A DNA stretch of 64,000 nt from Candidatus Latescibacterota bacterium (GCA_965223905.1 CBDCXV010000002.1:544001-608000); one strand, 5' to 3'. Numbered from the stretch's first letter, positions 1 through 58,444 are shown. Translations and numbers: made by a program. The notes: generated by a model not told the origin, from the sequence alone.

Positions 1-2
1 CT

Positions 3-740
3 CTCGACTCCGGGGACTGGGTCGAGCTTCACAACCATGGCGCCGTCCCCGTCGAGATCGGGGGCTGGCGCTTTCGCGATGCGGGGAACTCGCCCGACTT
101 CATTCTGCCCCCCGATGTCCTTCTCGAGGCGGGCGGCTACGTGGTGCTTTGCCGTGACAGCACCGATTTCAGAATGGCCTTTCCGGAGACCGATGGCTGT
201 CTCGGCGACTTTCCCTTCGGCCTGAGCAGCCGCGGGGACCACATTACTCTTTTGACCGGCCTGGAGCGGGTGGTCGATTCGGTGGTGTATGACGAGCGCC
301 CTCCCTGGCCGACCGAGCCGAACGGAACCGGCTTCACCCTGGCCCTGATCGAGCCCACGGCCGACAACTCCCGCCACGAAAACTGGTACGCCTCACCCGA
401 CGGGGGGACCCCCGGAGTGTGGAATGCTCCGGCCACTCCCTCCGCATCGAATCCGGGGGTGAGGGCGGTCAGCTATCCGAATCCCTTTTACACCAGTGCC
501 ACGGTGTTCCTGAGCCTGTCGAGAACTTCCAATGTGTCCGTTCAGGTGTTCAACCTGCTGGGAGCCCATGTGGCGACCCTTGTCGATGACGAGATCATGG
601 AGGCGGCCGAGCACTCGCTTGTCTGGGACGGCCGGTCCGCGGCCGGACATGAGGTCGCCTCGGGAGTCTACCTGTGCCGCATCACGATCAACGGGTTCCC
701 CATGACCAGGAAGATGTTGAAGGTCGCGCGAAATCGGTGA
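3..740 (+). CDS. 5'-partial secreted protein: lamin-tail domain (LTD) plus C-terminal FlgD-Ig/T9SS-like domain (possibly the tail of a CotH-type protein)
   Basis: Frame is open from the window edge. LDSGDWVELHN...GWRFRD...F.LP...GGYVV and F.LS..GD.I.L...VDSV.Y...GTPG..N are LTD motifs. C-terminus SYPNPFY...VFNLLG...WDGR...VASGVYL. Confidence 0.8.
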   Translation, partial: LDSGDWVELHNHGAVPVEIGGWRFRDAGNSPDFILPPDVLLEAGGYVVLCRDSTDFRMAFPETDGCLGDFPFGLSSRGDHITLLTGLERVVDSVVYDERPPWPTEPNGTGFTLALIEPTADNSRHENWYASPDGGTPGVWNAPATPSASNPGVRAVSYPNPFYTSATVFLSLSRTSNVSVQVFNLLGAHVATLVDDEIMEAAEHSLVWDGRSAAGHEVASGVYLCRITINGFPMTRKMLKVARNR

Positions 741-993
741 CCTGAAGGTCGAATCCGCTCAACAGCTCCAAGGGGCTGCGTAATGGCGCGGTGGTCCACT
801 TCCCGGGGAGGACCTCTGCCGCCCGACAGCGACCCGAGCCACGCCGGCGCGCCCCATCGAGACATCCCCCCAACCGCCGGAACTTCTTGAATTTGAACAG
901 CTTGGAGACGAACTTCATGGCGGCCTTCGGTCGCGTTTCGCTTCCCTTCCTCTCTACCCCGCCTTTTGAAGGTTACTCAGGAGTCAGTGTCTG

Positions 994-1674
994 ATGGATA
1001 GCCTGTTGCTCGATTTCGGGACGATCAAACTCCACTGGAACCAGGTCCTTCTCTCCCTCGTATTCGCCTTTTGCCTTTCGAGCATAATCGCAATGGTGTA
1101 CGAGTGGACGTTCCAGGGCCTGTCCTGGTCTCGCGGTTTGATGCAGACCATGGTTCTGGGCAGCATCATCACCTGTCTGCTGATGATTGCGATCGGCGAC
1201 AACGTCGCCCGGGGCATCGGTATCGTGGGGTCGCTGGCCATCATCCGTTTTCGCACCAACCTGCGCGATCCGCGCGATCTGGTGTTCCTCTTCGCTGCTC
1301 TTGGTGCCGGGGTAGCCTGCGGCGTTCAGAGCTACCTCGCCGCCACCTTCGCAACCGCCCTGTTCTGTACGATCGCGGTAGTCATGCACGCGTCGCTGTT
1401 CGGCACGCGGATGAAATTCGATGGACTCGTGCGCTTCCAGATACCGGCGGGGCCGACCTTTGCCGCCCAGGTGGCCCGGATACTGCAAGAGGTACCGAGA
1501 ACGTTCGCCCTGGTCACCATGCGGGACGTCGCCCAGGGCGATCTCGTCGACTGCACCTACCAGGTGAAACTCGCCGACGAAGCGGACTCGACGCGGCTGA
1601 TCGAGGTTCTCGGACAGATCGAAGGCATACGCGGGCTGACCTTCATGAACCACTCCTCTGCCGTAGAGGTGTAG
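994..1674 (+). CDS. DUF4956-family membrane protein (several TM helices plus C-terminal ACT-like domain)
   Basis: Signature GIGIVGSLAIIRFRTNLRDPRD, hydrophobic helices, RBS AGGAG upstream. Confidence 0.85.
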   Translation: MDSLLLDFGTIKLHWNQVLLSLVFAFCLSSIIAMVYEWTFQGLSWSRGLMQTMVLGSIITCLLMIAIGDNVARGIGIVGSLAIIRFRTNLRDPRDLVFLFAALGAGVACGVQSYLAATFATALFCTIAVVMHASLFGTRMKFDGLVRFQIPAGPTFAAQVARILQEVPRTFALVTMRDVAQGDLVDCTYQVKLADEADSTRLIEVLGQIEGIRGLTFMNHSSAVEV

Positions 1675-1677
1675 TGG

Positions 1678-2769
1678 ATGAAGCGCTGGCTGAGGAGGAA
1701 CTCTTTCCGTGCCCTGTGGGTGGCGGGCGTGCTTGCCGCGGCCACCGGCTATCGGGAGTGGCGTGCCGACCCGTATCTGATCGGCACGGTGGTATCGACG
1801 GTGCGCTCGGTGGGCGCTCGCGAGGGAGGTACCATCCAGGAGGTGAGTACCGCAGTGGGGGAAAGCGTCGTGGCCGGCCAGGTCCTGGCTCGCCTGGACG
1901 CCTCCGACCTGTTGGCGGAAAAACGACTGCGTCAAGAAGAGCTGGCCTCCCTGGAGTCGATAGTATCTGCAGACCGGCGTCGATACAGCGTCGAGTACGA
2001 CCTGTTGCGGCTGCGCGTGTCCGAGCAGTACGCCGCCGTCCAGGCGGAGGAGGCCGAGCTCGAGGCCCTCGGCCGGGAAATCGCCGCGCTTGTAGCAGCG
2101 GAGAAAGCCGGCCTGGGACACGATCGCGATCTCACCCGCATGACCATCCGCCGCGATGCCCTGGCGCAGTCGGTAGCCGGACAGTCGACGCTCATTCGGC
2201 CCGACGTGCTCAAGCTTGGCGCCGGCGATTCGGGTGCCTATGGCGACAGCATCATGATTTCGCTTCTCGGCGACCGCGTGCAGCGCCAGCACGAGGTCCG
2301 GCAGTCCCTCGCCCTGATCGATCAGCGCATCGAGTACCGGACGGTCAGGTCGCCGTGTGCGGGATCGGTCTCCGAGATCCTGGCCTTGCAGGGAAGTACG
2401 GTCGATGCTTTCGTGCCCATTGTTTCCGTGGGGAGCGCCGACGCCTCCGCGGTTGAAGTGTACGTCCCGGAGACGGAGGACCTGCAGTTCGATGTCGGAC
2501 AGGAGGTGGAAGTGATGTCGAGGCGGTCGAGCGAGTTCGACGCCAGGGGGAGGATCGACTTCGTGCATCCTGGGTACTCACCGATGCCCGAGAGGCTGTG
2601 GCTGCGCGGGCAGATGTTGTGGGCCAGAAGGGCCCGTGTCCTCCTCGAGCCGGGCCACCTCCTGCTGCCCGGCGAGTCCGTACGCGTACGCCTTGCCGAT
2701 CGCCCGTCCGCACCGTGGGGCGCCTTCGCGGAAGAGAGCGATCCGGAAATCGGGAGACCGGGGCGATGA
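1678..2769 (+). CDS. HlyD/membrane-fusion (periplasmic adaptor) protein
   Basis: N-terminal TM, lipoyl halves GTIQEV...GESVVAGQVLARLD and VRSPCAGSV, long coiled coil, beta-barrel with G.I.FV.P and LLPGE.V.V. Confidence 0.85.
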   Translation: MKRWLRRNSFRALWVAGVLAAATGYREWRADPYLIGTVVSTVRSVGAREGGTIQEVSTAVGESVVAGQVLARLDASDLLAEKRLRQEELASLESIVSADRRRYSVEYDLLRLRVSEQYAAVQAEEAELEALGREIAALVAAEKAGLGHDRDLTRMTIRRDALAQSVAGQSTLIRPDVLKLGAGDSGAYGDSIMISLLGDRVQRQHEVRQSLALIDQRIEYRTVRSPCAGSVSEILALQGSTVDAFVPIVSVGSADASAVEVYVPETEDLQFDVGQEVEVMSRRSSEFDARGRIDFVHPGYSPMPERLWLRGQMLWARRARVLLEPGHLLLPGESVRVRLADRPSAPWGAFAEESDPEIGRPGR

Positions 2770-4079
2770 GAGCAGGCGGCCGGTTTCTCGTGGTGCTGGC
2801 CCCTTTCGTTGCGATCCCCGGTTCGACGGCAGCCTCGGCCGATCTCCCGGGCGAAGCCCCGGGCGTTCACAACGCCGGCAACAAGGGCGGGGTGCCCCTG
2901 ACGATTGAAGAAACGGTGGCGGTGGGTTTGGACAACAACCCGCGGCTGCGTGCGTTCGAAACAGAGACGGACGTTCGCATCCACCGGATTCGCTCGCTCG
3001 ACTGGATCGACAATCCGGAGCTGCGCGTCCGCAACCTGGCCTCTCGGCGCGGGAGGGCCCGGTTCGACGAACTCGAGATCGGCATCCGCTGGCGTCCTCC
3101 TTCCCTCGGTGAGGTGGGAGCGCGACGGCAGCGGAAGCAGGTAGCCTTGTGGGAGCGCAAGGTGGAGGCGGTGAGGGAGCGGCATTGGCTGGCTTCGCGA
3201 GTGCGCCGGTCCTGCGCCGATATCGCCATGCATGCCGAACTGGCCCGCATCGCCGCCATGCGGGTTGAGAATGAGAACCTGCGGATCTCCCAGATCGAGA
3301 CCATGATGGACCTCGGCCGGAGGTCGATCGTCTACTTCACCAAGGCAAAAACGGTCGTTGCCGAGGCGCGCCAGGGTCACCTTCGCAGCTTGCACGCACT
3401 GCGGGAGGAAGAGCGCAGGTTGCGACGACTCACAGGTATCTCCACGCAGACCCGGGTGCTTTCGGAGCCGCTTCCCGAAGTCGCCTTGAATGAAGAGCGA
3501 CTCCTCGTCCTCGCCTACGCCAACCGCCCGGAGCTTCGGTTGGCCGAGGAGCAGCGACAACTCGCCCTCGAAAGGCGAAACCTCGAGAGCTGGCGGCTGC
3601 TGCCGCAGTTGTCCTTCCTGGAGGTTTCCCGACACTTCGAGCGTTCCGAAGGCGACTGGCATGAGCTGGTCTTCGGCCTCGAGCTCCCCCTCTTCAACCG
3701 CAATGCGGGCAACCTGGCCGGCGTTTCCCTTGCGGTGTCGGGAAGCGAGCTCGAGGTCCTCTCCGTTCGCGAGCGCATCGCCGAGGAGGTCCGCGAAACG
3801 CTCTCGGACTACAGGGAAACACTGCTCGCCCGCGACCTGACTCTCCGGGAGGGCGAGGCCATCATCCAAGGCTCGTCGCAGGTTATCGCCGAGACACGGG
3901 ACTACCCTACCGTGCCGGCTGACGAGATCCTGGAGCTCGAGCGCACGATCATGGATGCTCGGGTCGCAATCGCCGAGAGCCAGCGCGATCTGGCGCACGC
4001 GCTCTATTTCCTTTTCTACGAGCTGGGCATCGAGGATCCGGGGGTCCTGCAGGAGGAGGAGGCCCACGATGGCGGTTGA
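2766..4079 (+). CDS. TolC/outer-membrane efflux family protein
   Basis: ATG overlaps the HlyD stop (ATGA). Signal peptide. OEP-repeat motifs LTIEE.V..GLDNNP.L, AYANRPEL, LELPLFNRN. Confidence 0.85.
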   Translation: MRAGGRFLVVLAPFVAIPGSTAASADLPGEAPGVHNAGNKGGVPLTIEETVAVGLDNNPRLRAFETETDVRIHRIRSLDWIDNPELRVRNLASRRGRARFDELEIGIRWRPPSLGEVGARRQRKQVALWERKVEAVRERHWLASRVRRSCADIAMHAELARIAAMRVENENLRISQIETMMDLGRRSIVYFTKAKTVVAEARQGHLRSLHALREEERRLRRLTGISTQTRVLSEPLPEVALNEERLLVLAYANRPELRLAEEQRQLALERRNLESWRLLPQLSFLEVSRHFERSEGDWHELVFGLELPLFNRNAGNLAGVSLAVSGSELEVLSVRERIAEEVRETLSDYRETLLARDLTLREGEAIIQGSSQVIAETRDYPTVPADEILELERTIMDARVAIAESQRDLAHALYFLFYELGIEDPGVLQEEEAHDGG

Positions 4080-4839
4080 GCTGCCCGCGGTCCACCGCTA
4101 CGAGTTGAAGTACACGGTGACCGAGCGGCAGGCCGCGGAAATCCGCGATTTCATTCAACCGCTGTTTTCAATCGACGCCAACGTCCCCACGGAGCAGGGA
4201 AGCTACACGGTCAACAGCGTGTACATGGATACTCCCGGGTTGCGCTTCTACCACGACACCAGGCTTCGTCAGCTGCTGCGGTTCAAACCGAGAATCCGTT
4301 TTTACGGCACCGGCGCGGTCGAGTATGTCACCCTCGAGGTCAAGTACCGCCACAACCGCACCGTCTGGAAGGTCCGCGACCGAATCGCTATGACGGAGTG
4401 GCCCGGGGTGCTCGAAATCGCCAGGAGCGAACGCACCTCGCCGACGTACGAGGCCCTGCCGCGGTCCTTCGTCGACGTCCATCATCTGTACGGCACCGCG
4501 CCCGTGCTCCATCTCCGCTACCACCGGGAGCCCTTCGTCAGCGACGTGGACGCGTACGGACGCATTACGTTCGACCGCGGTATGCGCTACCGGCTGATGC
4601 GCGGTTCGTACGACCTGTCGGGCCATGATGAGGAGATGAGCTACTACGACGACGCGGTCACCGCGCAGTGGGCGGAGTCCCCGGTCGTTATGGAGATCAA
4701 GACCGAATCCCTGGTGCCTTTCTGGGCGCTGGACCTCATCAAGCGTTTCTCCCTTGTCCAGCGCGGATACTCCAAGTACCGCTACGTGATCGACCACTGT
4801 CTCGAGCGCCTCGGTAGCCGAAACGACATCGCAGTGTGA
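4069..4839 (+). CDS. VTC-domain (polyphosphate polymerase-like, CYTH/TTM fold) protein
   Basis: Motifs RYELKY, SVYMDT, KPRIRFY, LEVKY, YHREPF, RITFD, MEIK, SKY. Strong GGAGG RBS. Overlaps the TolC stop. Confidence 0.88.
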   Translation: MAVELPAVHRYELKYTVTERQAAEIRDFIQPLFSIDANVPTEQGSYTVNSVYMDTPGLRFYHDTRLRQLLRFKPRIRFYGTGAVEYVTLEVKYRHNRTVWKVRDRIAMTEWPGVLEIARSERTSPTYEALPRSFVDVHHLYGTAPVLHLRYHREPFVSDVDAYGRITFDRGMRYRLMRGSYDLSGHDEEMSYYDDAVTAQWAESPVVMEIKTESLVPFWALDLIKRFSLVQRGYSKYRYVIDHCLERLGSRNDIAV

Positions 4840-4991
4840 GGCCTCCACTGGCAGCTACCTGAGGCTTCACCACGGTACGAAATACATTTTCCGACCAACC
4901 GGCTGCTCTTGTTCCACCGCCTCCGCTGCACTGGGCACGCTAAAACGGTGCGGGTGTCCGGAACCGCAACCGGATCGTGCCGGCCAAGCCA

Positions 4992-6893
4992 TTATGCGGT
5001 TTTTCTTTCTGGAATAACCGGCAACAGAACGTGCGACGGTTGCGCCGCGTTGTGGTGGACCCTGTTGTCCGCGCCCTGTCGCCGCCGCTCCCGGCCGATG
5101 GGGTCGCCGGTGTTGGGGTTGACGTCGAAGCGGGGGAAGTTCGAGCTGGAAACGTCGAGGCGGATCCGGTGCCCGGCGGCGAACAGGTTGCTCGTCGGGT
5201 AGAGGGTGATCGTCAGCTCGGCGACCTCGCCCGGCTCCAGCAGCTCCCCCTTTTCGCGCCCGTTGCGGTAGCGCAGGCGCGCGATGCTGTCGGTCAGGTT
5301 GAGCGCGTACCCGTGCGGATACCAGCGGCTCGGCGGATAGCAGTCGACCAGCTTGGCGGTGAAGTCCGTATCCGGCGCCGCCGACGAGACCCACAGCTTC
5401 ACCTCGATCGGTCCGGTCACCTCCACGTCCCCGGCCAGCGGCCCGGTGGCGAAGACCAGCACGTCCGGCCGCGAGCCCAGCGGCAGGTAGGGAGGCGCAC
5501 AGCCGTAAAACTCCGGCCCCTCCACCTGGTCGAACCCGCCCGGCACCATCAGCTGCTCCACCCGCGCCCGCCACGGCGCATTAGCGGAATCCCCCACGCC
5601 CGGAGGCAGCGGGCCGATCTCGGAAAGCGAGGAGACATTGCCGCCGATCGAGGGCACCGGGTTGGCCGGGTCGAAGCGATAGACCGTATCGCCGCCGTCC
5701 GCGGCCGGCTCTTCCGTCGACAGGGTGCCGTCGCCCTGCAGGTAGTACCTGGTATTCTGCGTCCGCGCCAGCGGCCACTCGGCTTCGTCGCGCCAATGCC
5801 CCCCGTGGAAAAGCCGGCCGCTGCTGGTGCGATACCCGCCGCCGCCGCCCATGGCGAAGATCCGCACCGGCGGCGCCCTCTCCTCGCCGTTGTCGACTCC
5901 CTTGAGCACCCGGTCGAAGAAGCGCAGGTGCAGGTCGCGGAAGTCGGCCAGCGCCGCCTCCTCGCCGAACTCCACGTCCCCTGCAACGCTCTGCTCCAGG
6001 GTCTGCGTCCCGTGCGTCCACGGCCCCATGAGCATGCGCACCGGCCCCTGCTTGCGGGCCGCGAGCCCCTCGTAGTTCTTGCAGGTCGAGCGCGTGTAGG
6101 AATCGTACCAGCCCCCGATGAGCAGCATCGGCACGTCGGGGAAGTCGTCCCAGAAGAGGGCCGGCGCGTAGCTCGGGTGCTGCCAGTACTCGTCGTAGTC
6201 GGCCCTGGTCAGCAGGTCCAGCGCCCACTTCTCGTAGGGCGGCACCAGCTCGAGCTGGGTCTGTCCCTTGCGCAGCGGCATGCGCGTCAGCCAGTCGGCA
6301 AAGGTCGGGGCGCCCAGGTTCAGGGCGGCGTCGACCGCCGGGTCGGCTTTCAACGCGCGCTGCGTGTTGGCCGCCGAATGCCAGAAGGCCCACGCCAGGA
6401 ACCGCAGCTCCAGGGCGCCTCCGTGCCGCACCGAAGACTCGTGCGCGTCGGCGCCGCTCATGTTGACCACCATCGCCTTTAGGTTCGCCGGCCCCAACGC
6501 CGCCATCGCCGTCTGCGTCCAGCCCGACCAGGAGGTCCCCCACGACCCCACCTTGCCGTTGCTCCACGGCTGCCGGTCGATCCACTGCAGGGCGTCGTAC
6601 CCGTCCTCGGCCTCGGGCAGCAGGAAATTGACGTCCCCCTCGGACCGGAACGTCCCGCGGCAGTCCTGGTACACCGCCACGTACCCGCGCTGGGCGAAGA
6701 ACCGGCCGTACCCGCCGGTGCGCTCGACGTCGCTCTTGTCGTAGGGGGTGCGGTGGAAGACCGCGGGGAACTTCCCGGGCAGCGGCTCCCCGTCGCGGGC
6801 GGGGAAGTACAGGTCGGTCGCCAGCCGCACCCCGTCGCGCATTTCCACCATTGCATCGCGTTCTGTTACCACGTCGTAGAGGCCGTTCGTCAT
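4992..6893 (-). CDS. CocE/NonD family (peptidase S15-like) alpha/beta hydrolase
   Basis: MRDGVRLATD.Y.P, RTPYDK, QD.RG...SEG, nucleophile GTSWSG, GWYD, GPWTH, SSSNFPRF. AAGGAG RBS. Confidence 0.93.
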   Translation of the reverse strand: MTNGLYDVVTERDAMVEMRDGVRLATDLYFPARDGEPLPGKFPAVFHRTPYDKSDVERTGGYGRFFAQRGYVAVYQDCRGTFRSEGDVNFLLPEAEDGYDALQWIDRQPWSNGKVGSWGTSWSGWTQTAMAALGPANLKAMVVNMSGADAHESSVRHGGALELRFLAWAFWHSAANTQRALKADPAVDAALNLGAPTFADWLTRMPLRKGQTQLELVPPYEKWALDLLTRADYDEYWQHPSYAPALFWDDFPDVPMLLIGGWYDSYTRSTCKNYEGLAARKQGPVRMLMGPWTHGTQTLEQSVAGDVEFGEEAALADFRDLHLRFFDRVLKGVDNGEERAPPVRIFAMGGGGGYRTSSGRLFHGGHWRDEAEWPLARTQNTRYYLQGDGTLSTEEPAADGGDTVYRFDPANPVPSIGGNVSSLSEIGPLPPGVGDSANAPWRARVEQLMVPGGFDQVEGPEFYGCAPPYLPLGSRPDVLVFATGPLAGDVEVTGPIEVKLWVSSAAPDTDFTAKLVDCYPPSRWYPHGYALNLTDSIARLRYRNGREKGELLEPGEVAELTITLYPTSNLFAAGHRIRLDVSSSNFPRFDVNPNTGDPIGRERRRQGADNRVHHNAAQPSHVLLPVIPERKTA

Positions 6894-7298
6894 AACGCTG
6901 CTCCTTGTTTTTTTCTGTTCGGGCACCGGCCGCAAAAATCAGCCCCCCGGCCCGTTTTTCAGCCAGCCGGAGGGGCTGGTTGGCAACAGCGCCGCCACCT
7001 GGCCTCGTGACCCTGGCTCGTCCGCATGGCCCGGCTCGCATGAGCCGTTGGCTTCGAACCGAGCCAAACCCAGGTCGCCAACCAGCAGACCAAGGTTTTT
7101 CAGGACCCTCGCCTTGCAGTAGAATGTGGGCGGGAGGACAGCGCATGGCCATGCACGCGATCGTCGGATGCTGCGCCTCGGGGCGGGAGCACATCTCGGC
7201 CATGAGGCCGATCGTCAAGCGCTGGAAGGCGCTATGGGGTCCAAAGCCGAAGTGATCGGGAAACGGGGTGTTTCCGAGCAAAGGGAGTCGGGATCGAA

Positions 7299-8588
7299 TT
7301 GAAAACCGTTGACGAGCTGCAGCATGAGATCCACCTCATGCAGGCCATCTTCGACAGCATCAGCGACGGCGTGATAGTCGCCGATGAGAACGGCAGCCTC
7401 ACCTTCAACAAAAGTGCGCAACAGATCGTCGGTGGCAGGCTGGATACGGTCCTCGAACAATGGACGGAGGAGTACAGCATCTTCTACCCCGACAAGGTCA
7501 CGCCCATTCCAAAAGAGGAACTGCCCCTGGTGCGCGCCATGCGCGGGGAAGCGACCGATGAGATGGAGATGTTCATCCTCACTGCGGCCAAGCCTGAAGG
7601 CGTTTATATAAGCGCCAGCGGCAGGCCCATTACTTCGCCGGGCACTGCCGCTCTCGGCGGGGTCATCGTCTTCCGGGATGTGACGGAAAGAGTGCGGGCC
7701 GGAGAAGCCCTGGCCCAGGCCTTCGCCCAGGGCCGCCTCGAGGTCATGGACACCATCCTGCACAACATCGGCAATGCCATAAACAGCGTGGCCATCGGCA
7801 TCGGAACACTCAAGGAACAGTTGGCCGACAATCTGCTGATCGAACGGTTGTCGGGCCTGTCACAAGCCGTCGGGGCGCATTCGGAGGATTGGATCGACTA
7901 CCTCCGGCATGACCCGCAAGGCCGGAAGGTGCGGCCGTTTCTCCTGGCTCTTGCCGAGGACCTCGTAAAGCAGAATCAGAAATTGATCGGCACGGTTGAA
8001 CGCGTCGACAGCCAGACGGGTCAGATCGTCGACATCGTCCGCGCCCAACGGGGTTTCGACAGCAAGGCCATGACCTGCAAGGACGTCAACCTGCGTGAGG
8101 CCATCTTCGGCTGCCTGAGGATCCTGGAGAACTCGTTTTCCAGCCGGGGAATCCGCACACATGTCAACTGCGGCAGCGCCCCGGAAGAGATCCGCATTCA
8201 GGAGACCCAGTTCAACCAGATGCTCGTCAACCTGCTCAAGAACGGGATGGAAGCCATCGACGAGTTGAAGCAGTCAGGGGGTCTCGAAGGAGAGTCTCGC
8301 ATCGAGATAAGAGCCAGCGTCAGCCAGGACCTGCTCGTCCTCGAGGTGGAGGACAACGGGGTCGGCATCGACCGGAAGAACCTCCAGGCGATCTTCAGGG
8401 CGGGTTATACGACGAAGCGGGAAGGGAGCGGGCTCGGTCTGCACTCGGCGGCCAATTTCGTCACCAGTATCGGGGGTAAAATCCAACCCTTGAGCCGCGG
8501 CCATGGCACGGGCGCCACCATGCGCGTCACGCTGCGGCTCGATTCCGCCGGTCGGGATCGGGACACCACGCCGGCAACCCCTGCCTGA
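7299..8588 (+). CDS. Cytoplasmic PAS sensor histidine kinase
   Basis: PAS (SISDGVIVAD..G...FN, FRDVTER), H-box LHNIGN, N-box NLLKNG.EA, DNGVG, TTK..GSGLGL. No TM segment. TTG start. Confidence 0.9.
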   Translation: MKTVDELQHEIHLMQAIFDSISDGVIVADENGSLTFNKSAQQIVGGRLDTVLEQWTEEYSIFYPDKVTPIPKEELPLVRAMRGEATDEMEMFILTAAKPEGVYISASGRPITSPGTAALGGVIVFRDVTERVRAGEALAQAFAQGRLEVMDTILHNIGNAINSVAIGIGTLKEQLADNLLIERLSGLSQAVGAHSEDWIDYLRHDPQGRKVRPFLLALAEDLVKQNQKLIGTVERVDSQTGQIVDIVRAQRGFDSKAMTCKDVNLREAIFGCLRILENSFSSRGIRTHVNCGSAPEEIRIQETQFNQMLVNLLKNGMEAIDELKQSGGLEGESRIEIRASVSQDLLVLEVEDNGVGIDRKNLQAIFRAGYTTKREGSGLGLHSAANFVTSIGGKIQPLSRGHGTGATMRVTLRLDSAGRDRDTTPATPA

Positions 8589-8669
8589 CGCCTTCTGCTG
8601 TTTCTGTGAGCCTCGAAACCACCATTTCGAAGTCGTCCCTCGTGACCGGGCGACCATAAAGGCAGCTGC

Positions 8670-10589
8670 ATGAAAACAAACCCCTCCTGGAACTACCGCG
8701 TGCTGGTCGTCGACGACCAGGATGAAATCCACAACGACTTCGAAGAGATGCTGGCTTCCGGCTCCACCAGGAGGGCGACGGATGACTTGGCGTCGGCGTT
8801 CGTCCGGGAGACCGGAAAACTCGTTCTGCCGCAGTTCGAGCTTTCCCATGCGACCAGCGGGGATGAAGCCTGCGACATGGTCAAGGCGGGCAGGGAATCG
8901 AACCGCCCCTTGGCGATGGCCTACGTCGACGTCAGGATGCCCCCGGGTACCGACGGCATCGAAACCGTGCGCAGGATCCGGAAATTCGAGCAGGATATCG
9001 AAATCGTCATCATGACCGCGTACTCCGACAAGACGCTGCCGGAGATCGTCGACGACATGGAGTTTCTTCACAAACTGCTGTATATCCGCAAGCCGTTTTC
9101 GCGGGAGGAGATCCAGCAGATCACGCTGTCGCTTACCGGGAAGTGGAACATCGAGCAGGAGCTGGCGGAGCACCGGCATGAACTTGAAACCAGCAATCGG
9201 CAGCTGGAAGCCAGCAACCAGAGACTCGAGGCGGTGCTCGACGCGACCGGAGATGCCATCGGCATGTTCAATGCCGGCGGACGCCTCCAGGTCGCGAACC
9301 AGGGGTATGAGAAGCTTCTCGACGCCACGGAAAGCGAGCTGAAGGAAATGCCCGCAAGAGACCTCAGGGCACGCCTCATGGCGCGCCTGCGGCCGCCCGT
9401 TCTGCCCGAATCGGAAGGCGGGCTGGTTCTCGGCAGCAGCGGCGAACTCGAGGAGGAAGTCACCGAAGCCGGCGTCTCCAAACCCCGGCTGTTTTACCGC
9501 TCGACAGCGCCCGTGAACGACAGTCGACAGAGCTCAACGGGGCATGTCGTCATTTACCGCGACGTGTCCCGGGAGGTCGAGAGCGAGCAGATGAAAGCCG
9601 AAGTGTTGCGCTTGCGCGCCGAGCTGGGAACGACGTACGGCTTTGACGGCATGGTGGGGAAAAGCAATAGGATGCGGGACCTCTACGCGCTGATGCAGCG
9701 GGCGGCCGAAAGCGACATCACGGTGCTGGTTCAAGGGGAAAGCGGCACCGGCAAGGAGCTCGTCGCCAGGCTGATCCACTACAACAGCCCGAGAAAGACA
9801 GGCCCGTTCGTCGCCGTCAACTGCGCTGCCATCCCCGAGACCCTGATCGAAAGCGAGCTGTTCGGACATGAACGCGGGGCCTTCACCGGGGCGTCGACGC
9901 GGCGTATCGGGCAGTTCGAGCGCGCCCAGGGGGGAACCGTTCTGTTGGACGAGATCGGCGACATGCCCATCGCCCTGCAAGCCAAGCTGCTGCGCGTCCT
10001 GGAAGAGCGGGAGATCCAGCGGGTGGGGGGAACATCGGCGATTGCGATCGACATTCGCGTGATTTCGGCGACCAACCGGGACCTGGAAGTCGCCGTAAAG
10101 GAAGGCGGATTCCGCGCCGACCTGTTCTATCGCCTCGCTGCCTTTCCCTTTGTCATCCCGCCTCTCAGGGAACACCGCGAAGACATTCCCCTGCTGGCGG
10201 CGCAATTCCTGAAAGACCATGCCGAACGGGCCGGGGAAAACATTCGCGGGATCTCCCCCGCGGCGCTGCAGAGATTGCTCGCGTACGACTGGCCGGGAAA
10301 CGTGCGCGAGCTGAAGAATGCCATTGAACGCGCCGTGTTGCTGGAGACCGCGGACCGGCTTCAGGTAAACAACCTCCCCTCCCAACTTTCCGCCCTGCCT
10401 CCCTCTTCAACCGGCCCCGGAGGTCCTGACCACCCCCCCCTGTCGATGCAGGAAGCGGAGCGGCAGGCAATCGTCCGCGCCCTCGAGGTATCCGGGAGCA
10501 ATATCACCAGGGCGGCCCAGGTACTGGACATCGATCGCACGACCCTGCACCGGAAGCTGAGGAAGTACAACCTGCTGCCGGAGAAGTGA
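8670..10589 (+). CDS. Sigma54-dependent response regulator (REC-PAS-AAA+-Fis HTH; NtrC-like enhancer-binding protein)
   Basis: [67 protein letters not shown]. Confidence 0.95.
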
Positions 10590-10670
10590 ACCGCCTGCCC
10601 GGCAGCCGCCGGCCCAGGTCGGACCGGCCCTGAGGCCAGGCCGGGACCTCCCGGTTCGATCCGGCCCCGA

Positions 10671-10809
10671 TGTGGTAAAATGCCACAGCGCGGCATATCA
10701 CCACAGCCACCGCCCCTTCCCGCCAAGTTACGCATAAGTCACACGATTTCAGAGGGTTAGGCCCTTCTTTCGGCTCCTCGTCCGCTTTCAGCCGTTGTAT
10801 TCTGCATCA
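10671..10809 (+). promoter_or_regulatory. Putative enhancer sites of cassette A (tandem pair plus a third site)
   Basis: TGTGGTAAAATGCCACA 10671-10687, CGCGGCATATCACCACA 10689-10705, CGTTGTATTCTGCATCA 10793-10809. Conserved at 23426-23565. Confidence 0.65.
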
Positions 10810-10888
10810 ATCCTGCTTTTTACAGTCTTCCCGCATTGATCCTCCAACCTCCTTTGTAATCAGGAGGTTAGGCGATTCCTCCAGTGCC

Positions 10889-10904
10889 TGGCACGGTGCG
10901 TGCA
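10889..10904 (+). promoter_or_regulatory. Sigma54 -24/-12 promoter (cassette A)
   Basis: TGGCACGGTGCGTGCA (GG-N10-GC). IHF-like AATCAGGAGGTTA at 10858-10870. Lies 60 bp before the ATG. Confidence 0.78.
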
Positions 10905-10964
10905 AGAGTATGGGCTGCGAGAACGATTTCCGTTCTGGCCGAACATGCGGAGAGGGAGGGCGAC

Positions 10965-13900
10965 ATGAGAAGGATGTCAGTCGACCTGCAGAGACGGGGG
11001 GAGGAAGATGCCGGAGGAGGGACTTCACAAGCGCGGGCGGCAAGCCGTTTCGGTCCCAGGGTCAGGCGATGGCTTCGACAAGTGCAACGGCGAGGCCACG
11101 CGTCGGCCCGCCCGCGAGGCGGGGCGCGCGGATCCGGCACAGTGCTTCTGGCGGCAGCCACCGCCCTTGTCGTCGCCGCGGCCGCCTCCGCTCAAGAGTA
11201 TGATCCGCCGGTCACCACGCTCGTGACGAACATGGTGCAACCTTCAGGATCGGACCTGGTCGTATGTCTGTCCGAGGGTCAGGACGGACTGTTTCAGGGG
11301 TTCAGAACCGGGCCGAACCAGGGTGGATACGAGCTGACGAGTATTCTGCTCTATGTGCGAGCGACGCATGAAAGTCGGTACATGACGATAAACGCCGGCC
11401 TGTACCGCGGCCGCGGCAACCAGTACACCAGGGTCGCCGACCTCACCAGGGCAGGTTCCTTGAACGACTTTGCCCACAATGAATGGCAGGCCCCCGCCAA
11501 CACCTACCTGGAGCCGAATACGGATTACCGTTTCGTCCTTGACTGTGTCGCCGGCTGCGCCAATGACAACAAGGCCCAATTCGGCAGGACCTACAGCATG
11601 GAAGAGGATTCGGGGGCGGAAGAGGGCTGGACTCTCCATGATCATCTCGGCTTTCGGAGAGCTGGCGAGACCCACTGGCTTTGCGATCTCAACAAGGTTC
11701 TCAGGATACGTATCAAGGGGCGTCCCAGCCCTCACCGCGCCTACAGGACGGAGATCGTGTCGACGCCGGAAAACGGGGGCACCTACCTGTACGGGGAGAA
11801 CATCGATGTCGCCCTGACGTTCAACACGGACGTGTACGTGCCGGAGGAGGGCTCCGAGATCGGCATTCGGGTCGGCGAGGCTGCCGACGGCCCCACCTAT
11901 CGCGCCGCGGAATACCTGTCCGGCTCCCGCACGAATCGTCTGGTGTACCGCTACCGGGTGCAGATGGGCGATACTGACGCCAACGGCATCAGCGTCGACG
12001 CGGGAGGACCGGACACCGGATACAGCAGGTGGGTGCCAACGATCGTCGCCAGTCTGGGTCTGTTGCCGGTCGACCGCTATTTCCCCGGACGGGCAGACGA
12101 CGGCAACCACAAGGTGGACGGCTCGCTTCAGGTCACCGATGTGGAGATCACGTCGAGACCCGGGCACGGGGATGGCTACCGGTTCGGCGAGGAGATCGAC
12201 GTCACCCTGACGTTTTCCGCCGAGGCGTTTGTCGGGCAGGACGCCTCGGTCATTGCCATTCGAGTCGGGGACGGTGCCGGCGAAGAAAACTACCGGGCTG
12301 CACGGTACGAATCCGGCTCCGGCACGAAGCGGCTCCTGTACCGTTACCGGGTGCAGTTTGCCGATTTCGATGCGGACGGCATCAGCGTCGATGTGGGCGG
12401 GGCCCACTCGGGCTTCGATGGGCCGCTGCCCACGGCCAGCCCCGGTCCGGGCTCAGTCCCGGCATCCCGGCACTACCCCGGCATGGCTGACGACGCCGGT
12501 CACAAGGTCGATCGATCGGTGACCGCTTCGTTCGTCGTGGAAGCCTTGACCATCTCCGAGGACGGAACCTCGGCGACGGTGACCGTGGAGCTGGACCCCG
12601 ACCCCGATCGTTCGGTGACCATCCCGATCGTCGTTGCCCTTGGCGACGGGGCGTCCGTCGACGACTACACCCTGTCTGCAACCGGCCTCGCCTTCGCGCG
12701 CGGGGAGACCTCGAAGAGCTTGACAGTGACCGCGACCGACGACAGTGAGGACGACGACGGGGAGAGCCTGGAACTCTCCTTCTGGACCTTGCCGTCCGGG
12801 GTGCGCGCCGGAAGTCGGGCATCCGCCACGGTGACCATCGCCGACGACGACGGGGCAACGACGGGACAGACGATTTCGATCAGCGCCGGCAGGGACGCCT
12901 ATATCGCAGGGTTGGACGACGTGGTCTTCGACCTGACGCTGGCCGAGGCGTCGGATCGGGCAATTGCGGTCGACGTCAGGCTGACGCAGGAGCAGCTGTT
13001 CCTGAATACCGGCGACCTGACGCAGCGCGTCGATTTTCCCGCTGACGCGACCGCCGCGGAGCTGCGCATCTCCCCCTCCCTGCAAAACGAGCGCGTGATC
13101 CAAAGCGGCACGCTTATGGCTACGGTTATCGAGGGGGCCGGCTACCACATCGGGACGCCGGCGGCGGCGAGCGTGCGCATGGCGGTGGGCAACCCCGCGT
13201 TGATCGCGCGGCTGGGGAAGTCCTCGTACAGCTTCGAGGAAGGGGCGACCGGCGCGGCAGCGGGCATCGAGGTCATCCTGGAGACGCAGCCGGGATTTCC
13301 GGCACCGAACCGGAGCCACGAAGTGACCCTGTCGACGGAGAGCGGGACGGCGGCTGCCGATGAGGATTTCGTCCCCGTTACGGAAACGATGACGTTCACT
13401 CCCGAGGAATTCACGGCCGCCGACGGCCGATGGGTTGCCCGAAAGAATATCGAGCTGCAGCTGGTGGACGACTCGGCGGACGAGCTCGAAGGGTTCTTCA
13501 TGGCAACGCTGGCCCGGGACGTTTCGCTCGGCGACCTGATTCAGGTGCGCAATCCCAACCGCACGCAGTGCGACGGCCCGTGCCGGTCCAGGATCGTCAT
13601 TGCCGACAACGACGAAGTGGGTGTCGCCTTCCTCGACGGCGACGGCAACCCGCTCACCGATTTCCGGCTGACGGTCCGCGAAGGGGAGCAGGTCACCTAC
13701 CAGCTCGAGCTCGACAGGCCGCCGGCGCAATGGGTGATTCTCGCCCGGGAACCGGGTGAGGGGGACCCCGACCTGGTTTCGCTCGGCGAGCAGTCCTGGA
13801 TGTTCACGGCGGGAGAAGGCGGGGCCCCTGAGGATGTCGACCATCTCCATGAGACGGTCCCGGGGATGGAGCACACGACCCCCCTGGAAATTCACCATTC

Positions 13901-16205
13901 GACGGAACCCTTTCCTGTTACCGTGGAGGCGCGGCATGACAACGACGCCTATAGTGGCGAGCGTCGCTTCCACCACTATCTGTACAGCCATGATCCGGGC
14001 CGGGACCGCGTCGAGCTGCCCGATGTCGTGATCGTCGAAATCGACAACGAGGCGGAGGGTCCGCTGCGGATCTTCGGAACGCCCGTAGTGGTTTCCCGGC
14101 CGGCGTCGGGAGGGAACACCTACGGGCTCGGCGAACGCATCGAGATTCAGGTGATCTTCACCAGGCCGGTACAGGTGACCGGCAGCCCGTATCTCGAATT
14201 CGGCCTGGGGAATTCCGGGGCCGCGGGCATGGCGAGGGCCAACTTCGCGGGCGGAGACGGTACGCAGACACTCATCTTCGCCTATACGGTTGGCGACGAA
14301 GACTGGGACGACGACGGGATCGAGATCGGCTCGGGGGCCCTCCGCCTGAACGGTGGTACGATCCAAAGCGTCGTGACCGGCGAGGATGCTGCCCTCGATC
14401 AACCCGCGGCAGGGGTGCAGCCGGAGCACAGGATTCGCGGCCCGGCGACGCTGTCGGTTGCCGACGCCAGGGTGACGGAGGAAGTGGATGCAACGCTCGA
14501 GTTCGTCGTTTCCCTGAGCAGGGAAGCCTCGGATACGGTGACGGTGGATTTCGCGACCGCGGACGGCACGGCCGCCGCGGGCCAGGACTACACGGCCGCG
14601 GAGGGGACGCTGACCTTTGCACCCGGCGAGACGGAGAAGACGGTTTCGGTGGCGGTTCTCGACGACGCCCACGACGAGGGGGAGGAGACGCTGACGCTGA
14701 CCCTGAGCAACGCCTCGGGGGCGCACATCTCCGACAACACGGCGACGGGGACGATCGAGAACGCCGATCCGTTGCAGCGGGCCTGGCTGGCGCGCTTCGG
14801 CCGCACCGCGGCCCAGCGCGTGCTCGACGGAGTTCAGGCGCGCCTTGAGGCGCCGCGCGAGTCGGGGATGCAGGCAAGGTTTGCGGGCCAAACTCTCGGG
14901 GCAGCAGGTGAGGAAGCGGCGTTTCCGTCCGGCGGCACCGGTGCGGTCGCCGAGCAGGGCCGCTTCGTGACGCCCTCCGCCCGGCTCGGCGGCAGCGTGG
15001 CCGAGGCCCGGGTGCGGCCGCAGTCGCCGGCCCTGCGCGACCTGGTGACCGGAAGCGCGTTCACCATGAGCCGGCAGGCGGGTGAAGGCCATGGCACTCT
15101 CTGGGGCCGCGGAGCGTATTCCAGCTTCGGCGGAAGTGTCGACGGCCTGTCGCTCGACGGCGGGGTGACGACGGGGATGTTCGGGGCCGATTTCGCCATC
15201 GGGCCCTGGGTGGTGGGGCTGCCGCTGTCGCACAGCCGGGGGGAGGGCGGCTGGTACACGGCGGACCGGGGCGAAGGGAGCATGGCCTCCTCTCTGACCG
15301 GGCTGTATCCGTATGCCGGCTACGGGTTTGGGGAGGATCTGTCTCTGTGGGGCCTGGCCGGGTACGGTCAGGGGGAGCTGGCGGTGATGATGGAGGACGG
15401 GGAGTCGTACCGCACCGGCATGGACCTGACGATGGCGGCGGCCGGGGTGCGGGGGGACCTGGTATCGGCCCGACAGGCGGGGGATCTGTGGCTGACGGTC
15501 GAGTCGGATGCGCTGTTGGTGCGCACGACCTCGGGGGCGGCTTCGGGCCCGTCGGGTCTGCTGGCGGCGGCGGTTGCGGACGTCAGCCGCCTGCGCCTGG
15601 GTCTGGAAGGTTCGGTGGATCTGGCGGTGGCAGGGGGCGGGTGGTTGACGCCGACGGTGGAACTGGGTCTGCGCCATGACGGCGGCGACGCGGAGACGGG
15701 GTTCGGAGTGGAGGTCGGGGGCGGTTCGGTGTTTGTCGACGCGGGCCGGGGTCTGAGGGCGCAGGTGATGGTGCGCGGCTTGGCGGCGCACGAGGCCGCC
15801 GACTTCCGGGACTGGAGGCTGTCGGGTTCGCTGCGCTTCGACCCGCAGCCGTCTTCGGAACTCGGGCCGGCAGTTGAGCTGATGCCCTCGTGGGGAGCGT
15901 CCTCTTCGGGCGGGGTGGAGGCGTTGATGGGACGCGAACCCCTGGCAGGTCTGGCGGCCAACGCCGCAGGTCGTCTCGAGGCGGAGGCGGCTTACGGGGT
16001 TTCGGTGTTGGGCGGCCGGGCCACGGGGATCCCCTACCTCGGGGTGGGGAATTGCGGGGCCCGGCGCGAGGTGCGCCTGGGCTGGCGGCTGAAGCTGGCG
16101 CAACAGGAAGGGCTGAAACTGGGCATCGAAGGGACGCGGCGGGAGAGCACCGCCGGCAACGCCGCTCCGGACCACGGGGTCATGCTGCGCCTGGCGCTGC
16201 GATAA
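10965..16205 (+). CDS. Large surface protein A: long leader, N-terminal beta domain, 3 Ig-like repeats, Calx-beta domains, C-terminal autotransporter-like beta-barrel
   Basis: GGAGGG RBS. Hydrophobic signal ending ASA-QE. Calx-beta VDFATADGTA.AGQDY....GTLTFAPGET.KTVSV.VLDD..DEGEET.TLTLSN. AWLARFGRT linker, LWGRG, PTVELGLRHDGGDAETGFG. Confidence 0.85.
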   Translation: MRRMSVDLQRRGEEDAGGGTSQARAASRFGPRVRRWLRQVQRRGHASARPRGGARGSGTVLLAAATALVVAAAASAQEYDPPVTTLVTNMVQPSGSDLVVCLSEGQDGLFQGFRTGPNQGGYELTSILLYVRATHESRYMTINAGLYRGRGNQYTRVADLTRAGSLNDFAHNEWQAPANTYLEPNTDYRFVLDCVAGCANDNKAQFGRTYSMEEDSGAEEGWTLHDHLGFRRAGETHWLCDLNKVLRIRIKGRPSPHRAYRTEIVSTPENGGTYLYGENIDVALTFNTDVYVPEEGSEIGIRVGEAADGPTYRAAEYLSGSRTNRLVYRYRVQMGDTDANGISVDAGGPDTGYSRWVPTIVASLGLLPVDRYFPGRADDGNHKVDGSLQVTDVEITSRPGHGDGYRFGEEIDVTLTFSAEAFVGQDASVIAIRVGDGAGEENYRAARYESGSGTKRLLYRYRVQFADFDADGISVDVGGAHSGFDGPLPTASPGPGSVPASRHYPGMADDAGHKVDRSVTASFVVEALTISEDGTSATVTVELDPDPDRSVTIPIVVALGDGASVDDYTLSATGLAFARGETSKSLTVTATDDSEDDDGESLELSFWTLPSGVRAGSRASATVTIADDDGATTGQTISISAGRDAYIAGLDDVVFDLTLAEASDRAIAVDVRLTQEQLFLNTGDLTQRVDFPADATAAELRISPSLQNERVIQSGTLMATVIEGAGYHIGTPAAASVRMAVGNPALIARLGKSSYSFEEGATGAAAGIEVILETQPGFPAPNRSHEVTLSTESGTAAADEDFVPVTETMTFTPEEFTAADGRWVARKNIELQLVDDSADELEGFFMATLARDVSLGDLIQVRNPNRTQCDGPCRSRIVIADNDEVGVAFLDGDGNPLTDFRLTVREGEQVTYQLELDRPPAQWVILAREPGEGDPDLVSLGEQSWMFTAGEGGAPEDVDHLHETVPGMEHTTPLEIHHSTEPFPVTVEARHDNDAYSGERRFHHYLYSHDPGRDRVELPDVVIVEIDNEAEGPLRIFGTPVVVSRPASGGNTYGLGERIEIQVIFTRPVQVTGSPYLEFGLGNSGAAGMARANFAGGDGTQTLIFAYTVGDEDWDDDGIEIGSGALRLNGGTIQSVVTGEDAALDQPAAGVQPEHRIRGPATLSVADARVTEEVDATLEFVVSLSREASDTVTVDFATADGTAAAGQDYTAAEGTLTFAPGETEKTVSVAVLDDAHDEGEETLTLTLSNASGAHISDNTATGTIENADPLQRAWLARFGRTAAQRVLDGVQARLEAPRESGMQARFAGQTLGAAGEEAAFPSGGTGAVAEQGRFVTPSARLGGSVAEARVRPQSPALRDLVTGSAFTMSRQAGEGHGTLWGRGAYSSFGGSVDGLSLDGGVTTGMFGADFAIGPWVVGLPLSHSRGEGGWYTADRGEGSMASSLTGLYPYAGYGFGEDLSLWGLAGYGQGELAVMMEDGESYRTGMDLTMAAAGVRGDLVSARQAGDLWLTVESDALLVRTTSGAASGPSGLLAAAVADVSRLRLGLEGSVDLAVAGGGWLTPTVELGLRHDGGDAETGFGVEVGGGSVFVDAGRGLRAQVMVRGLAAHEAADFRDWRLSGSLRFDPQPSSELGPAVELMPSWGASSSGGVEALMGREPLAGLAANAAGRLEAEAAYGVSVLGGRATGIPYLGVGNCGARREVRLGWRLKLAQQEGLKLGIEGTRRESTAGNAAPDHGVMLRLALR

Positions 16206-16530
16206 GAACCGTCGGCCTGTCAGCTCGACACGGGCTGCCCGAGGAGCTCCATCCCCGATATCTCTGATTTCTCAGTATCAGTAGCTACCCCTTGTCTGCT
16301 TGGCACTGGTCCTGGAGTACAAATCCGGGGCTTGGGGGACTTCCATCGCGATGTCCAGGACGTCGGCCACAGGTGCCCCGAGTGCCGCAGCAGGAAGAAC
16401 GACAACCGGCAGCCGGGCCCCACGGACCCCGAACAGGAACAGGAAACTCCGGAAACACTGTTTTCACAGGGGGAACCCTGGGAGCGCCAGCCTCACATGG
16501 AAGGCAACTTCCAGGCAGGGTGCCTGAACC

Positions 16531-20547: not shown

Positions 20548-20894
20548 GTCCAATCACCTTTCATGTCATGCTTGGCCCCCATACGGGCAAGCCATGTATC
20601 AGATGGGGTTACTGTGAAGGTGGGAATTCCCGGGAGGAGCTCACTGCTACCACGACAGGGAGGCGCCAGTTCTTCCCGGCACGTCATCGACTGTGCCACG
20701 CAGTCCATCGTGCGAGTTTCGGATGGTTTTTCTGCTTTAAAATTACCCCAATCTGTATGAAATCAGTGTGAATTATTGGCATATTTTTATGACCATTACG
20801 TGATTTATCGAATTTCCGGTGGAGATTTACTGGGGCACCGAAATTCTCGCTGTGCCATACCATGGACCTGACTTCAGGCCGGCAGGAGTAGCGG

Positions 20895-37231: not shown

Positions 37232-37567
37232 CCGAAGACGCTCAACATGCGAATGCTGTTTCAGGGGGACCTGGAGTTGACCCGGTTCCCTGGACACTCA
37301 ATTTCTCGAAAAAGTGGACGACTTCGATCATCTCCTGGCCCGGTCACGATCGCCGGGGACTTCAAGCGCCAGCTCGCCCGACTCGAAGCGTGTCGTAGTC
37401 GCTTAGGGCAGCCGCGGGAAGCGCGATCTGCAGGCGGGAGAGGTCCGTGGTTTTTCAGTCACTCCCAGCCGGCCCGAAGGCGGCCGATCTGTTGGTTTCC
37501 CTGTGTCGTTTCGGGGGTTGCTGAAAGCTACGCCATCCCTCCATCCGGTAAAAACCGAGGCCCTGAA

Positions 37568-39982: not shown

Positions 39983-39984
39983 GC

Positions 39985-45466: not shown

Positions 45467-45637
45467 GCGAACGGCGATTTCGGGCCCCGGCGCTCCCCCT
45501 CGACGAGGAACATCCCGCATGCGGACGATCTGCCGAGCCTCGTCCTCGGCGGCAACCTTGCCCGCATGTTGGAAACCGGCAGGCGGTGCCAGGTTCGACC
45601 CGGTAAACGGCGGAAATCAAAAAAACAGGAAAGCCTG

Positions 45638-58416: not shown

Positions 58417-58444
58417 ACCCGCCCCTCCCGAAGAAAGGGATCTG

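Follow-up and report, generated by a model that had tools for sequence, protein, structure and literature searches.

A conserved DUF4956-adaptor-duct-VTC gene unit as a candidate polyphosphate exporter of two-membrane bacteria

We analyzed a 64,000-nt stretch of DNA from a Candidatus Latescibacterota bacterium (GCA_965223905.1 CBDCXV010000002.1:544001-608000, hereafter the window) and found that a four-gene unit at positions 994-4839 is the two-membrane (diderm) version of a conserved module of CotH, VTC, and DUF4956 proteins. On the plus strand, the unit encodes a DUF4956 protein of 226 amino acids, proposed here as an inner-membrane component (994-1674), a HlyD-type adaptor (membrane-fusion protein) in a short form of 363 amino acids (1678-2769), a TolC-like outer-membrane factor of 437 amino acids, called OEP after its Pfam family (2766-4079), and a stand-alone VTC domain protein of 256 amino acids, a proposed polyphosphate polymerase (4069-4839). 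Our preferred reading, to which we assign a probability of roughly 45%, is that the VTC protein makes polyphosphate, that a three-part exporter with DUF4956 as its inner-membrane part carries the polymer out, and that the exported product serves secreted CotH and LTD proteins.

The original prediction, made from the sequence of this window, had described four co-oriented, tightly packed genes, and this was borne out by the open reading frame (ORF) listing and by direct reads of the sequence. The three junctions proved exact to the nucleotide. The DUF4956 gene ends with TAG at 1672-1674 and is followed after 3 nt by the adaptor start codon ATG at 1678; both genes lie in the same frame of the window, with one stop codon and one further codon between them. 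The adaptor and OEP genes share an ATGA overlap at 2766-2769. The VTC gene begins with ATG at 4069 within the end of the OEP gene, whose TGA stop lies at 4077-4079, giving an 11-nt overlap. All four families named in the prediction are present, but its gene list did not hold for the order, which is DUF4956-HlyD-OEP-VTC with VTC last. A secreted LTD protein ahead of the unit (3-740, plus strand) and a convergent gene closing it (4992-6935, minus strand) were both confirmed by ORFs and family matches.

To place this arrangement in a wider context, we searched for relatives of the VTC protein. A protein search returned 97 relatives, among them a tight clade of 85 at ≥41% identity, followed by a sharp drop. 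An alignment of 27 relatives was used to scan genome contigs and gave 221 relatives, the best 80 of which were kept and correspond to 78 loci. ORFs were called in each locus and searched with profiles built from the corresponding five window proteins. The loci were thus selected by likeness to the window VTC protein, all 78 come from metagenome-assembled genomes, and the ORF starts are the longest possible.

All four genes were found in 59 of the 78 loci, in the same order throughout save for a single LTD gene between DUF4956 and HlyD in one of them (L025). Of these complete loci, 56 were recognized by script and three (L025, L035, and L059) on inspection; L035 and L059 had been missed by the script on account of long ORF calls. 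Contig ends cut 17 loci, whose order agrees as far as they extend, and the cassette is complete in 53 of the 55 loci that extend ≥4.3 kb upstream of VTC. There were only two true exceptions in the 78: L002, with transposases in place of DUF4956, and L076, without OEP. The spacing is equally regular. The DUF4956-HlyD gap has a median of 4 nt and falls within −10 to +20 nt in 52 of 61 pairs, the HlyD-OEP gap does not exceed 20 nt in 49 of 51 pairs, and for OEP-VTC the limit is 30 nt, kept in 53 of 57. The closest relative, L001, is a Latescibacterota chromosome with the same gene order and with VTC, DUF4956, HlyD, and OEP proteins 91, 97, 93, and 92% identical to those of the window, respectively.

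The loci carry 14 phylum labels and include chromosome-level assemblies such as OZ242214.1. The VTC tree tracks taxonomy, requiring 14 label changes against a minimum of 13, and contains two deep clades, both with the cassette; across 60 loci, the distance matrices of the four genes correlate with each other (Spearman rho 0.86-0.90). The clustered labels and the correlated distances indicate that the unit is old and mostly vertically inherited. Together, these data extend the linkage of HlyD and OEP with VTC and DUF4956 to other genomes and establish that the four genes form one conserved, tightly packed unit, inherited together across many phyla and far beyond what chance would produce. Fortuitous adjacency, or an assembly artefact of metagenome bins, would be in keeping with the metagenomic origin of all 78 loci. 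The same order is found, however, on single contigs from 14 phylum labels, including the chromosome-level OZ242214.1, and a DUF4956-HlyD-OEP set without VTC lies on a plasmid of a cultured strain. The recurrence of the order over loci refutes this explanation, and we regard its probability as negligible.

The original prediction had also held that the unit lacks a pump, and our results agree. Searches against Pfam and NCBIfam revealed no ABC, RND, or MFS protein among the seven proteins of 1-8588, and the 24 further window ORFs contained no such domain either. The sole transporter gene seen in the window, at 47291-48268, encodes a cation-efflux (CDF) protein and lies 42 kb from the unit. In the closest genome, L001, no cognate ABC or RND gene lies just upstream of the unit; the upstream genes are a CotH protein and then two divergent ORFs without a family match. 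All-against-all clustering of 571 unassigned neighbor ORFs yielded no recurrent transporter family; the recurrent families were divergent OEP proteins, CotH proteins, response regulators, histidine kinases, and PPDK_N proteins. We also scanned with Pfam the 85 same-strand neighbors of at least 200 amino acids drawn from 177 ORFs within two genes of the cassette. Pumps among these 85 were limited to one MacB-type permease (L012) and one AcrB with its own adaptor 5 kb away (L056). No conventional pump gene is conserved beside the cassette.

The gene in the position of the pump is DUF4956. Its product matches PF16316 with 42.8 bits (cut-off 30.6) and is the most conserved of the unit, with a mean pairwise identity of 56%. 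The structural model (predicted local distance difference test score (pLDDT) 78.6) contains five predicted membrane helices at residues 15-39, 47-67, 71-88, 93-110, and 114-133, loops of just 3-7 residues, and a C-terminal β-α-β-β-α-β unit that is ACT-like. Charge counts in 47 DUF4956 sequences fit a topology with the N terminus out and the C terminus in, which would place an invariant basic motif (R85, F86, R87, T88, and then R94/D95) at the predicted cytoplasmic face. The fold matches are weak and comprise ACT domains and the MgtC C-domain (E 3e-3 to 1e-2), and the DUF4956 profile matched no PDB sequence. Language-model features likewise point to MgtC/SapB as the closest named family (score 0.76-0.79), a lead only, and the Pfam MgtC model (PF02308) scores below its cut-off (18.3 versus 31.4 bits), so that the likeness is one of architecture only. 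The DUF4956 family is large: at E up to 1e-3, it comprises 6214 clusters at 50% identity. Its best 150 representatives reach at most 351 amino acids, too short for a full fusion. One candidate DUF4956-adaptor fusion, the 512-amino acid metagenome protein P0098 annotated as a "multidrug resistance efflux pump," was rejected; its sequence departs from the DUF4956 frame within the ACT domain and continues as adaptor, probably as the result of a frameshift or sequencing error.

This likeness bears on whether the adaptor and duct might use a pump encoded elsewhere, leaving DUF4956 and VTC to act at the inner membrane only, either as an MgtC-like protein that regulates the balance of phosphate, magnesium, or ATP or as a maker of intracellular or periplasmic polyphosphate, with the gene linkage reflecting co-regulation. 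The MgtC-like character of DUF4956 would suit such a role, as would the description of MgtC, cited in PMC12345266, as a protein that acts on ATP synthase and PhoR and is not a carrier; a five-helix protein is also small for a channel unless it is oligomeric. Against this stand the conserved features of the cassette itself: DUF4956 directly precedes the adaptor (median gap 4 nt), the usual position of a pump gene, this order is kept in two deep clades, no pump is conserved alongside, and the single-membrane relatives described below lack exactly the adaptor and the duct. Adaptors are, moreover, normally encoded together with their pump. We therefore consider a pump encoded elsewhere quite improbable.

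The VTC protein matches PF09359 with 102.4 bits (cut-off 23) over model positions 2-228 of 235. A profile built from the 27 relatives found yeast Vtc4 chains only when compared with the PDB (3g3q, E 7.4e-8). In the HMMER alignment to Vtc4, K14, K92, S235, and K236 are invariant in these relatives and fall in columns that we take to be Vtc4 K200, K281, and S457/K458. Equally invariant are R75, R77, and E209, which align with Vtc4 R264, R266, and E426, residues whose mutation inactivated Vtc4 according to PMC9911596. Two residues before the conserved K14, position 12 is almost always glutamate, in place of the threonine of Vtc4. The protein consists of the VTC domain only, without an SPX or a membrane domain, and a search among longer proteins revealed no VTC fusion. 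With the Vtc4 catalytic columns kept, it is a putative polyphosphate polymerase. A complex prediction for DUF4956 and VTC reached a best score of 0.17 against a mark of 0.32, which argues neither for nor against binding.

The adaptor is recognized by HlyD_D23 (44.4 bits, cut-off 30) and HlyD_3 (40.3 bits, cut-off 22.2). Its model (pLDDT 83.5) shows an N-terminal helix at residues 2-30 as a membrane anchor, lipoyl strands, a β-barrel, and a hairpin whose two arms span ∼68 and ∼70 residues, the latter broken into three segments; on our reading, it has no membrane-proximal domain. The best matches among solved structures are EmrA (8zal_A, E 6.3e-19; 4tko, 1.3e-18) and MacA (3fpp, 1.5e-17). Adaptors of this type serve partners in the inner membrane that have no large periplasmic domains, in line with the short loops of DUF4956. 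A long form of the adaptor, ∼690 amino acids with an extra C-terminal domain, occurs in 31 loci (e.g. L009 6641-8671, L013 6558-8645, and L043 6578-8650); this domain matches DUF6929 and DUF6910 in four of the proteins scanned and SdiA-regulated in a fifth (L076). The VTC tree implies nine or more gains or losses of this extra periplasmic domain, and the window carries the short form. We found no separate propeller gene resembling the long-adaptor C-terminal domain in the window. Separate NHL, SdiA-regulated, or phytase-like proteins occur near some of the short-adaptor loci (L007, L024, L032, and L078).

The outer-membrane factor has a signal peptide-like N terminus and matches the Pfam OEP family in two stretches (52 bits, cut-off 22). 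It scores 16.9 against the NCBIfam TolC model (cut-off 225), which marks it as a divergent member of the TolC family. The gene occupies the same position in related loci. In L061-L078, mostly from Gammaproteobacteria, with Fibrobacterota and single loci of other phyla, the ORF at this position was missed by the window profile, and five of the six scanned were missed by Pfam too; profile-profile comparison by hhalign identified it as a divergent OEP (probability 97.6%, E 4.5e-12, 323 columns).

We then compared these loci with DUF4956 genes from a plasmid collection. A tblastn search with DUF4956 returned seven records, four from single-membrane and three from two-membrane bacteria. In all four single-membrane hosts, VTC lies directly upstream of DUF4956, and HlyD and OEP are missing: Paenibacillus has VTC-DUF4956-Cthe_2159, Nonomuraea VTC-DUF4956, Planococcus a polyphosphate polymerase domain protein followed by DUF4956 and CotH, and Pseudobutyrivibrio CotH-polymerase-DUF4956 inside a polysaccharide cluster. 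The lack of HlyD and OEP in these hosts fits a product that must leave the cell. Among the two-membrane records, a Chondrinema litorale plasmid (L079, NZ_CP111047.1, 6944-9884) carries DUF4956-HlyD-divergent OEP and a Hymenobacter plasmid DUF4956-TolC, both with no VTC within 7 kb, and the Sinorhizobium record has a DUF4956-like gene alone. The plasmid comparison therefore ties the adaptor and duct to the two-membrane envelope and to DUF4956, without a strict dependence on VTC. In the Chondrinema litorale plasmid, a HipA-family kinase gene lies 1.4 kb downstream of the set; the host is a cultured Bacteroidota strain and a possible experimental handle.

These VTC-less sets are one reason to consider a different cargo within the same architecture. 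DUF4956 would again be the partner of the adaptor and duct, and the product would be a phosphorylated small molecule, a nucleotide such as ATP for a secreted kinase, or a cation. In that case, the VTC-type enzyme would produce or hydrolyze another triphosphate, or else regulate the exporter. The acidic to neutral duct proteins are in line with this, as are the near-invariant glutamate at VTC position 12 in place of the Vtc4 threonine and the varied triphosphate substrates of the tunnel-enzyme superfamily (PMC4641920). The family match is, however, specifically to VTC, at 102 bits and in the PDB to Vtc4 chains only, the Vtc4 catalytic columns are invariant, and VTC is the last gene of the unit in 59 of the 78 loci. 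On balance, we judge another cargo unlikely.

Evidence for a link to extracellular proteins comes from the gene ahead of the unit. The 3-740 ORF, cut at its 5′ end by the window edge, is predicted to encode the last 245 residues of a secreted protein with CotH kinase and LTD domains, and itself carries an LTD domain (43 bits, cut-off 34.3) and a type IX secretion system (T9SS) sorting domain (TIGR04183, 33.8 bits, cut-off 23). In L001, the corresponding upstream gene encodes a 1003-amino acid CHB_HEX_C-CotH-Flg_new_2-LTD-Por_Secre_tail (T9SS) protein, whose N terminus resembles a signal peptide by eye, and the window fragment is 83% identical to its residues 759-1003, the last 245. The expected link of CotH to the LTD gene is thus real in the closest genome, and from this match we place the CotH domain of the window protein upstream of the window edge. 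CotH or LTD ORFs are present in 44 of the 78 loci, and in 42 of the 78 they lie within 1 kb of the cassette.

The same three families have been noted elsewhere. According to PMC7112168, a triad of cotH, polyphosphate polymerase, and DUF4956 genes stands beside Gram-positive pel loci. Streptococcus intermedius mutants lacking either the DUF4956-type or the CotH gene had less Pel and aggregated less, and the authors did not find the three-gene synteny outside pel loci (PMC12345266). The deletions indicate that the module has an extracellular phenotype.

Based on these observations, polyphosphate export could proceed as follows. The cytoplasmic VTC enzyme would make polyphosphate from ATP, and DUF4956 would oligomerize as the inner-membrane translocation unit, replacing an ABC, RND, or MFS pump. 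The membrane-anchored adaptor and the TolC-like duct would carry the product through the periplasm and the outer membrane. Outside, it would serve the CotH kinase and the LTD proteins as a phosphoryl donor, a bound polyanion, or a matrix component. Overall, this would amount to synthase-dependent secretion of an inorganic polymer via a three-part duct.

Several results weigh against polyphosphate export. The polyphosphate product, its transport, and the contacts between the proteins are all proposed from gene context and sequence. VTC is not obligatory for whatever DUF4956 moves, and the DUF4956-adaptor-duct sets without a nearby VTC imply that VTC polymerization as the driving force cannot be general. 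The duct is not basic: the OEP proteins have a median isoelectric point of 5.65 (n = 40, net charge −6) and the short HlyD proteins one of 6.69 (n = 29), so that the charge test was negative. The yeast VTC channel is, by contrast, lined with Lys and Arg (PMC9911596). A resemblance of DUF4956 to this channel, for which the original prediction had suggested a comparison, found no support, as the fold search gave no match to VTC complex chains. The nearest named relatives of DUF4956 are instead MgtC proteins, and the literature cited in PMC12345266 treats MgtC as a regulator, not a transporter. The fusion searches revealed no true VTC-DUF4956 or DUF4956-adaptor fusion, and CotH/LTD genes are absent from the retrieved DNA of 34 of the 78 loci. 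Finally, the survey count, drawn from the best 80 of 221 relatives by VTC likeness, says nothing about more distant VTC genes.

A stronger form of polyphosphate export would make the cassette a new class of trans-envelope machine, in which an MgtC-like DUF4956 oligomer is fed directly by the Vtc4-type polymerase, synthesis and threading occur in one step, and the external polyphosphate acts as donor or ligand for CotH and LTD proteins. We hold this tentatively and consider it rather doubtful.

Compared with known systems, the cassette combines features that are otherwise found apart. It resembles the yeast VTC complex (Vtc4/Vtc3/Vtc1) in having a tunnel domain of the same Pfam family with the R264/R266/E426 columns kept and, in the proposed logic, a polymerase at the cytoplasmic face that would feed a membrane passage. 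Unlike the yeast complex, the window protein lacks SPX and the fused three-helix membrane domain, no Vtc1-like gene is present, the membrane partner is DUF4956 with a different fold, and a periplasmic adaptor and an outer-membrane duct are added. With EmrAB-TolC and MacAB-TolC, it shares the EmrA/MacA adaptor architecture, a TolC-like factor, and the gene order inner-membrane protein-adaptor-outer-membrane factor. It differs from both in that the inner-membrane gene encodes a 226-amino acid DUF4956 protein and not an MFS, ABC, or RND pump, that a polymerase gene belongs to the operon, and that the adaptor of 31 loci carries the extra DUF6929/DUF6910/SdiA-regulated-like C-terminal domain.

The Gram-positive pel accessory genes (PMC7112168 and PMC12345266) link the same three families, with CotH secreted. 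In the cassette, unlike in the pel accessory genes, the adaptor and outer-membrane factor stand between DUF4956 and VTC, the hosts have two membranes, and CotH comes with LTD and type IX sorting domains. No pel gene was found among the 31 window proteins scanned. DUF4956 resembles MgtC/SapB in its approximately five membrane helices and C-terminal ACT-like domain, and differs in that its Pfam MgtC score is below the cut-off; to our knowledge, MgtC does not occur in operons with adaptors and ducts.

The literature searched, with most subscription journals outside the search and the sources seen in part, contains no description of the adaptor/duct version of the module, and we found no tested function for bacterial VTC domain proteins in it. 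Bacterial polyphosphate is ascribed to polyphosphate kinase (PPK) enzymes (PMC12526157). Some bacteria accumulate extracellular polyphosphate (PMC10653871 and PMC12772234), and none of the titles and abstracts searched on the subject names an exporter for it. The source of the phosphoryl donor for secreted CotH kinases is a further question that the cassette could answer. If true, one-step export of polyphosphate would explain the supply of energy-rich phosphate to an extracellular kinase. An operon that joins a Vtc4-type enzyme to an envelope-spanning duct thus offers one testable answer for the role of bacterial VTC proteins, for polyphosphate export, and for the CotH donor, and DUF4956 would receive its first proposed role. 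Even with a cargo other than polyphosphate, the cassette would remain a three-part exporter whose inner-membrane component is of a new kind.

Other phosphate-related genes were seen beside individual loci. In the Thiotrichales-type locus L078, a PHO4 phosphate transporter and a phytase-like protein directly follow VTC (10834-14043), and in L074, also Thiotrichales-type, a PhoD phosphatase lies upstream of the cassette (1445-3268). PPDK_N proteins (ATP-grasp, dikinase-type) recur beside the cassette, mostly in Myxococcota (L017 3218-5314, L023 2241-4382, and L058 11993-15109), and the same cluster includes L055 4363-6522 and L059 13080-14312; these proteins may take the place of CotH as a second enzyme of phosphotransfer. 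Several loci have two-component regulators alongside, of generic OmpR type or sigma-54 type, none of which reached the PhoB or PhoR cut-offs.

Further observations concern rearrangement of the cassette. L001 and L002 are both on OZ242214.1, which thus holds two HlyD-OEP-VTC copies in one genome with identical VTC proteins. In the L002 copy, rve and ISL3 transposase ORFs occupy the expected DUF4956 and CotH positions, and in L001 an ISL3 transposase lies 1.6 kb downstream. The genes downstream of the unit in the window (4992-16205) match L002 (CocE 92%, kinase 88%, and sigma-54 activator 91% identity), and those upstream match L001. This pattern suggests a duplication or rearrangement mediated by insertion sequences in the OZ242214.1 relative. 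L003 has, in addition to a complete cassette, a solo VTC paralogue 5 kb upstream of it that neighbors a CotH-LTD gene on the minus strand (9893-13733 and 15463-19425). In one clade, a protein of 700-1100 amino acids follows VTC or is read through from it (L024 10937-14344, L035 3043-6480, and L041 1023-3176); sub-threshold DUF2460 matches were seen in L024 and L041 only, and the L035 ORF is continuous with VTC.

Within the window, the unit is preceded by an intergenic spacer on the plus strand (741-993) with a weak terminator-like hairpin at 920-934. Terminator-like sites in 600-5100 numbered five and were not above the shuffled sequences (2.8 ± 1.7), and the promoter and terminator scan around the unit found no sigma-70-like promoter. 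Two antisense ORFs on the minus strand, 973-2568 (531 amino acids) and 2322-4067 (581 amino acids), were preferred over the real genes by a gene picker based on third-position GC content (GC3). Since it is the plus-strand genes that have orthologues and match known families, we dismissed both antisense ORFs as artefacts of high GC content. An Rfam search of 1-7400 returned nothing at E up to 0.1, and PADLOC matched none of the five proteins to a defense system.

The convergent gene that marks the end of the unit and lies outside it (4992-6935, minus strand) encodes a CocE/NonD S15 hydrolase (Peptidase_S15/PepX_C; TIGR00976, 415.7 bits), which is kept only in the relative L002 (92% identity) and not across loci. 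It is followed by a PAS histidine kinase and a sigma-54 activator (7299-10589), Calx-beta giants (10884-16205 and 23719-26718), a WD40 protein also with Big_1 (16531-20553), a hybrid kinase-receiver-OmpR-type regulator (20895-23306), and a further WD40 protein (35615-37297). The rest of the window encodes a globin-ankyrin fusion (39097-41430), two sulfatases (41673-43076 and 45566-47083), the CDF transporter mentioned above, an ISL3 transposase (54915-56177), and a 1640-amino acid fn3 protein (58295-63217).

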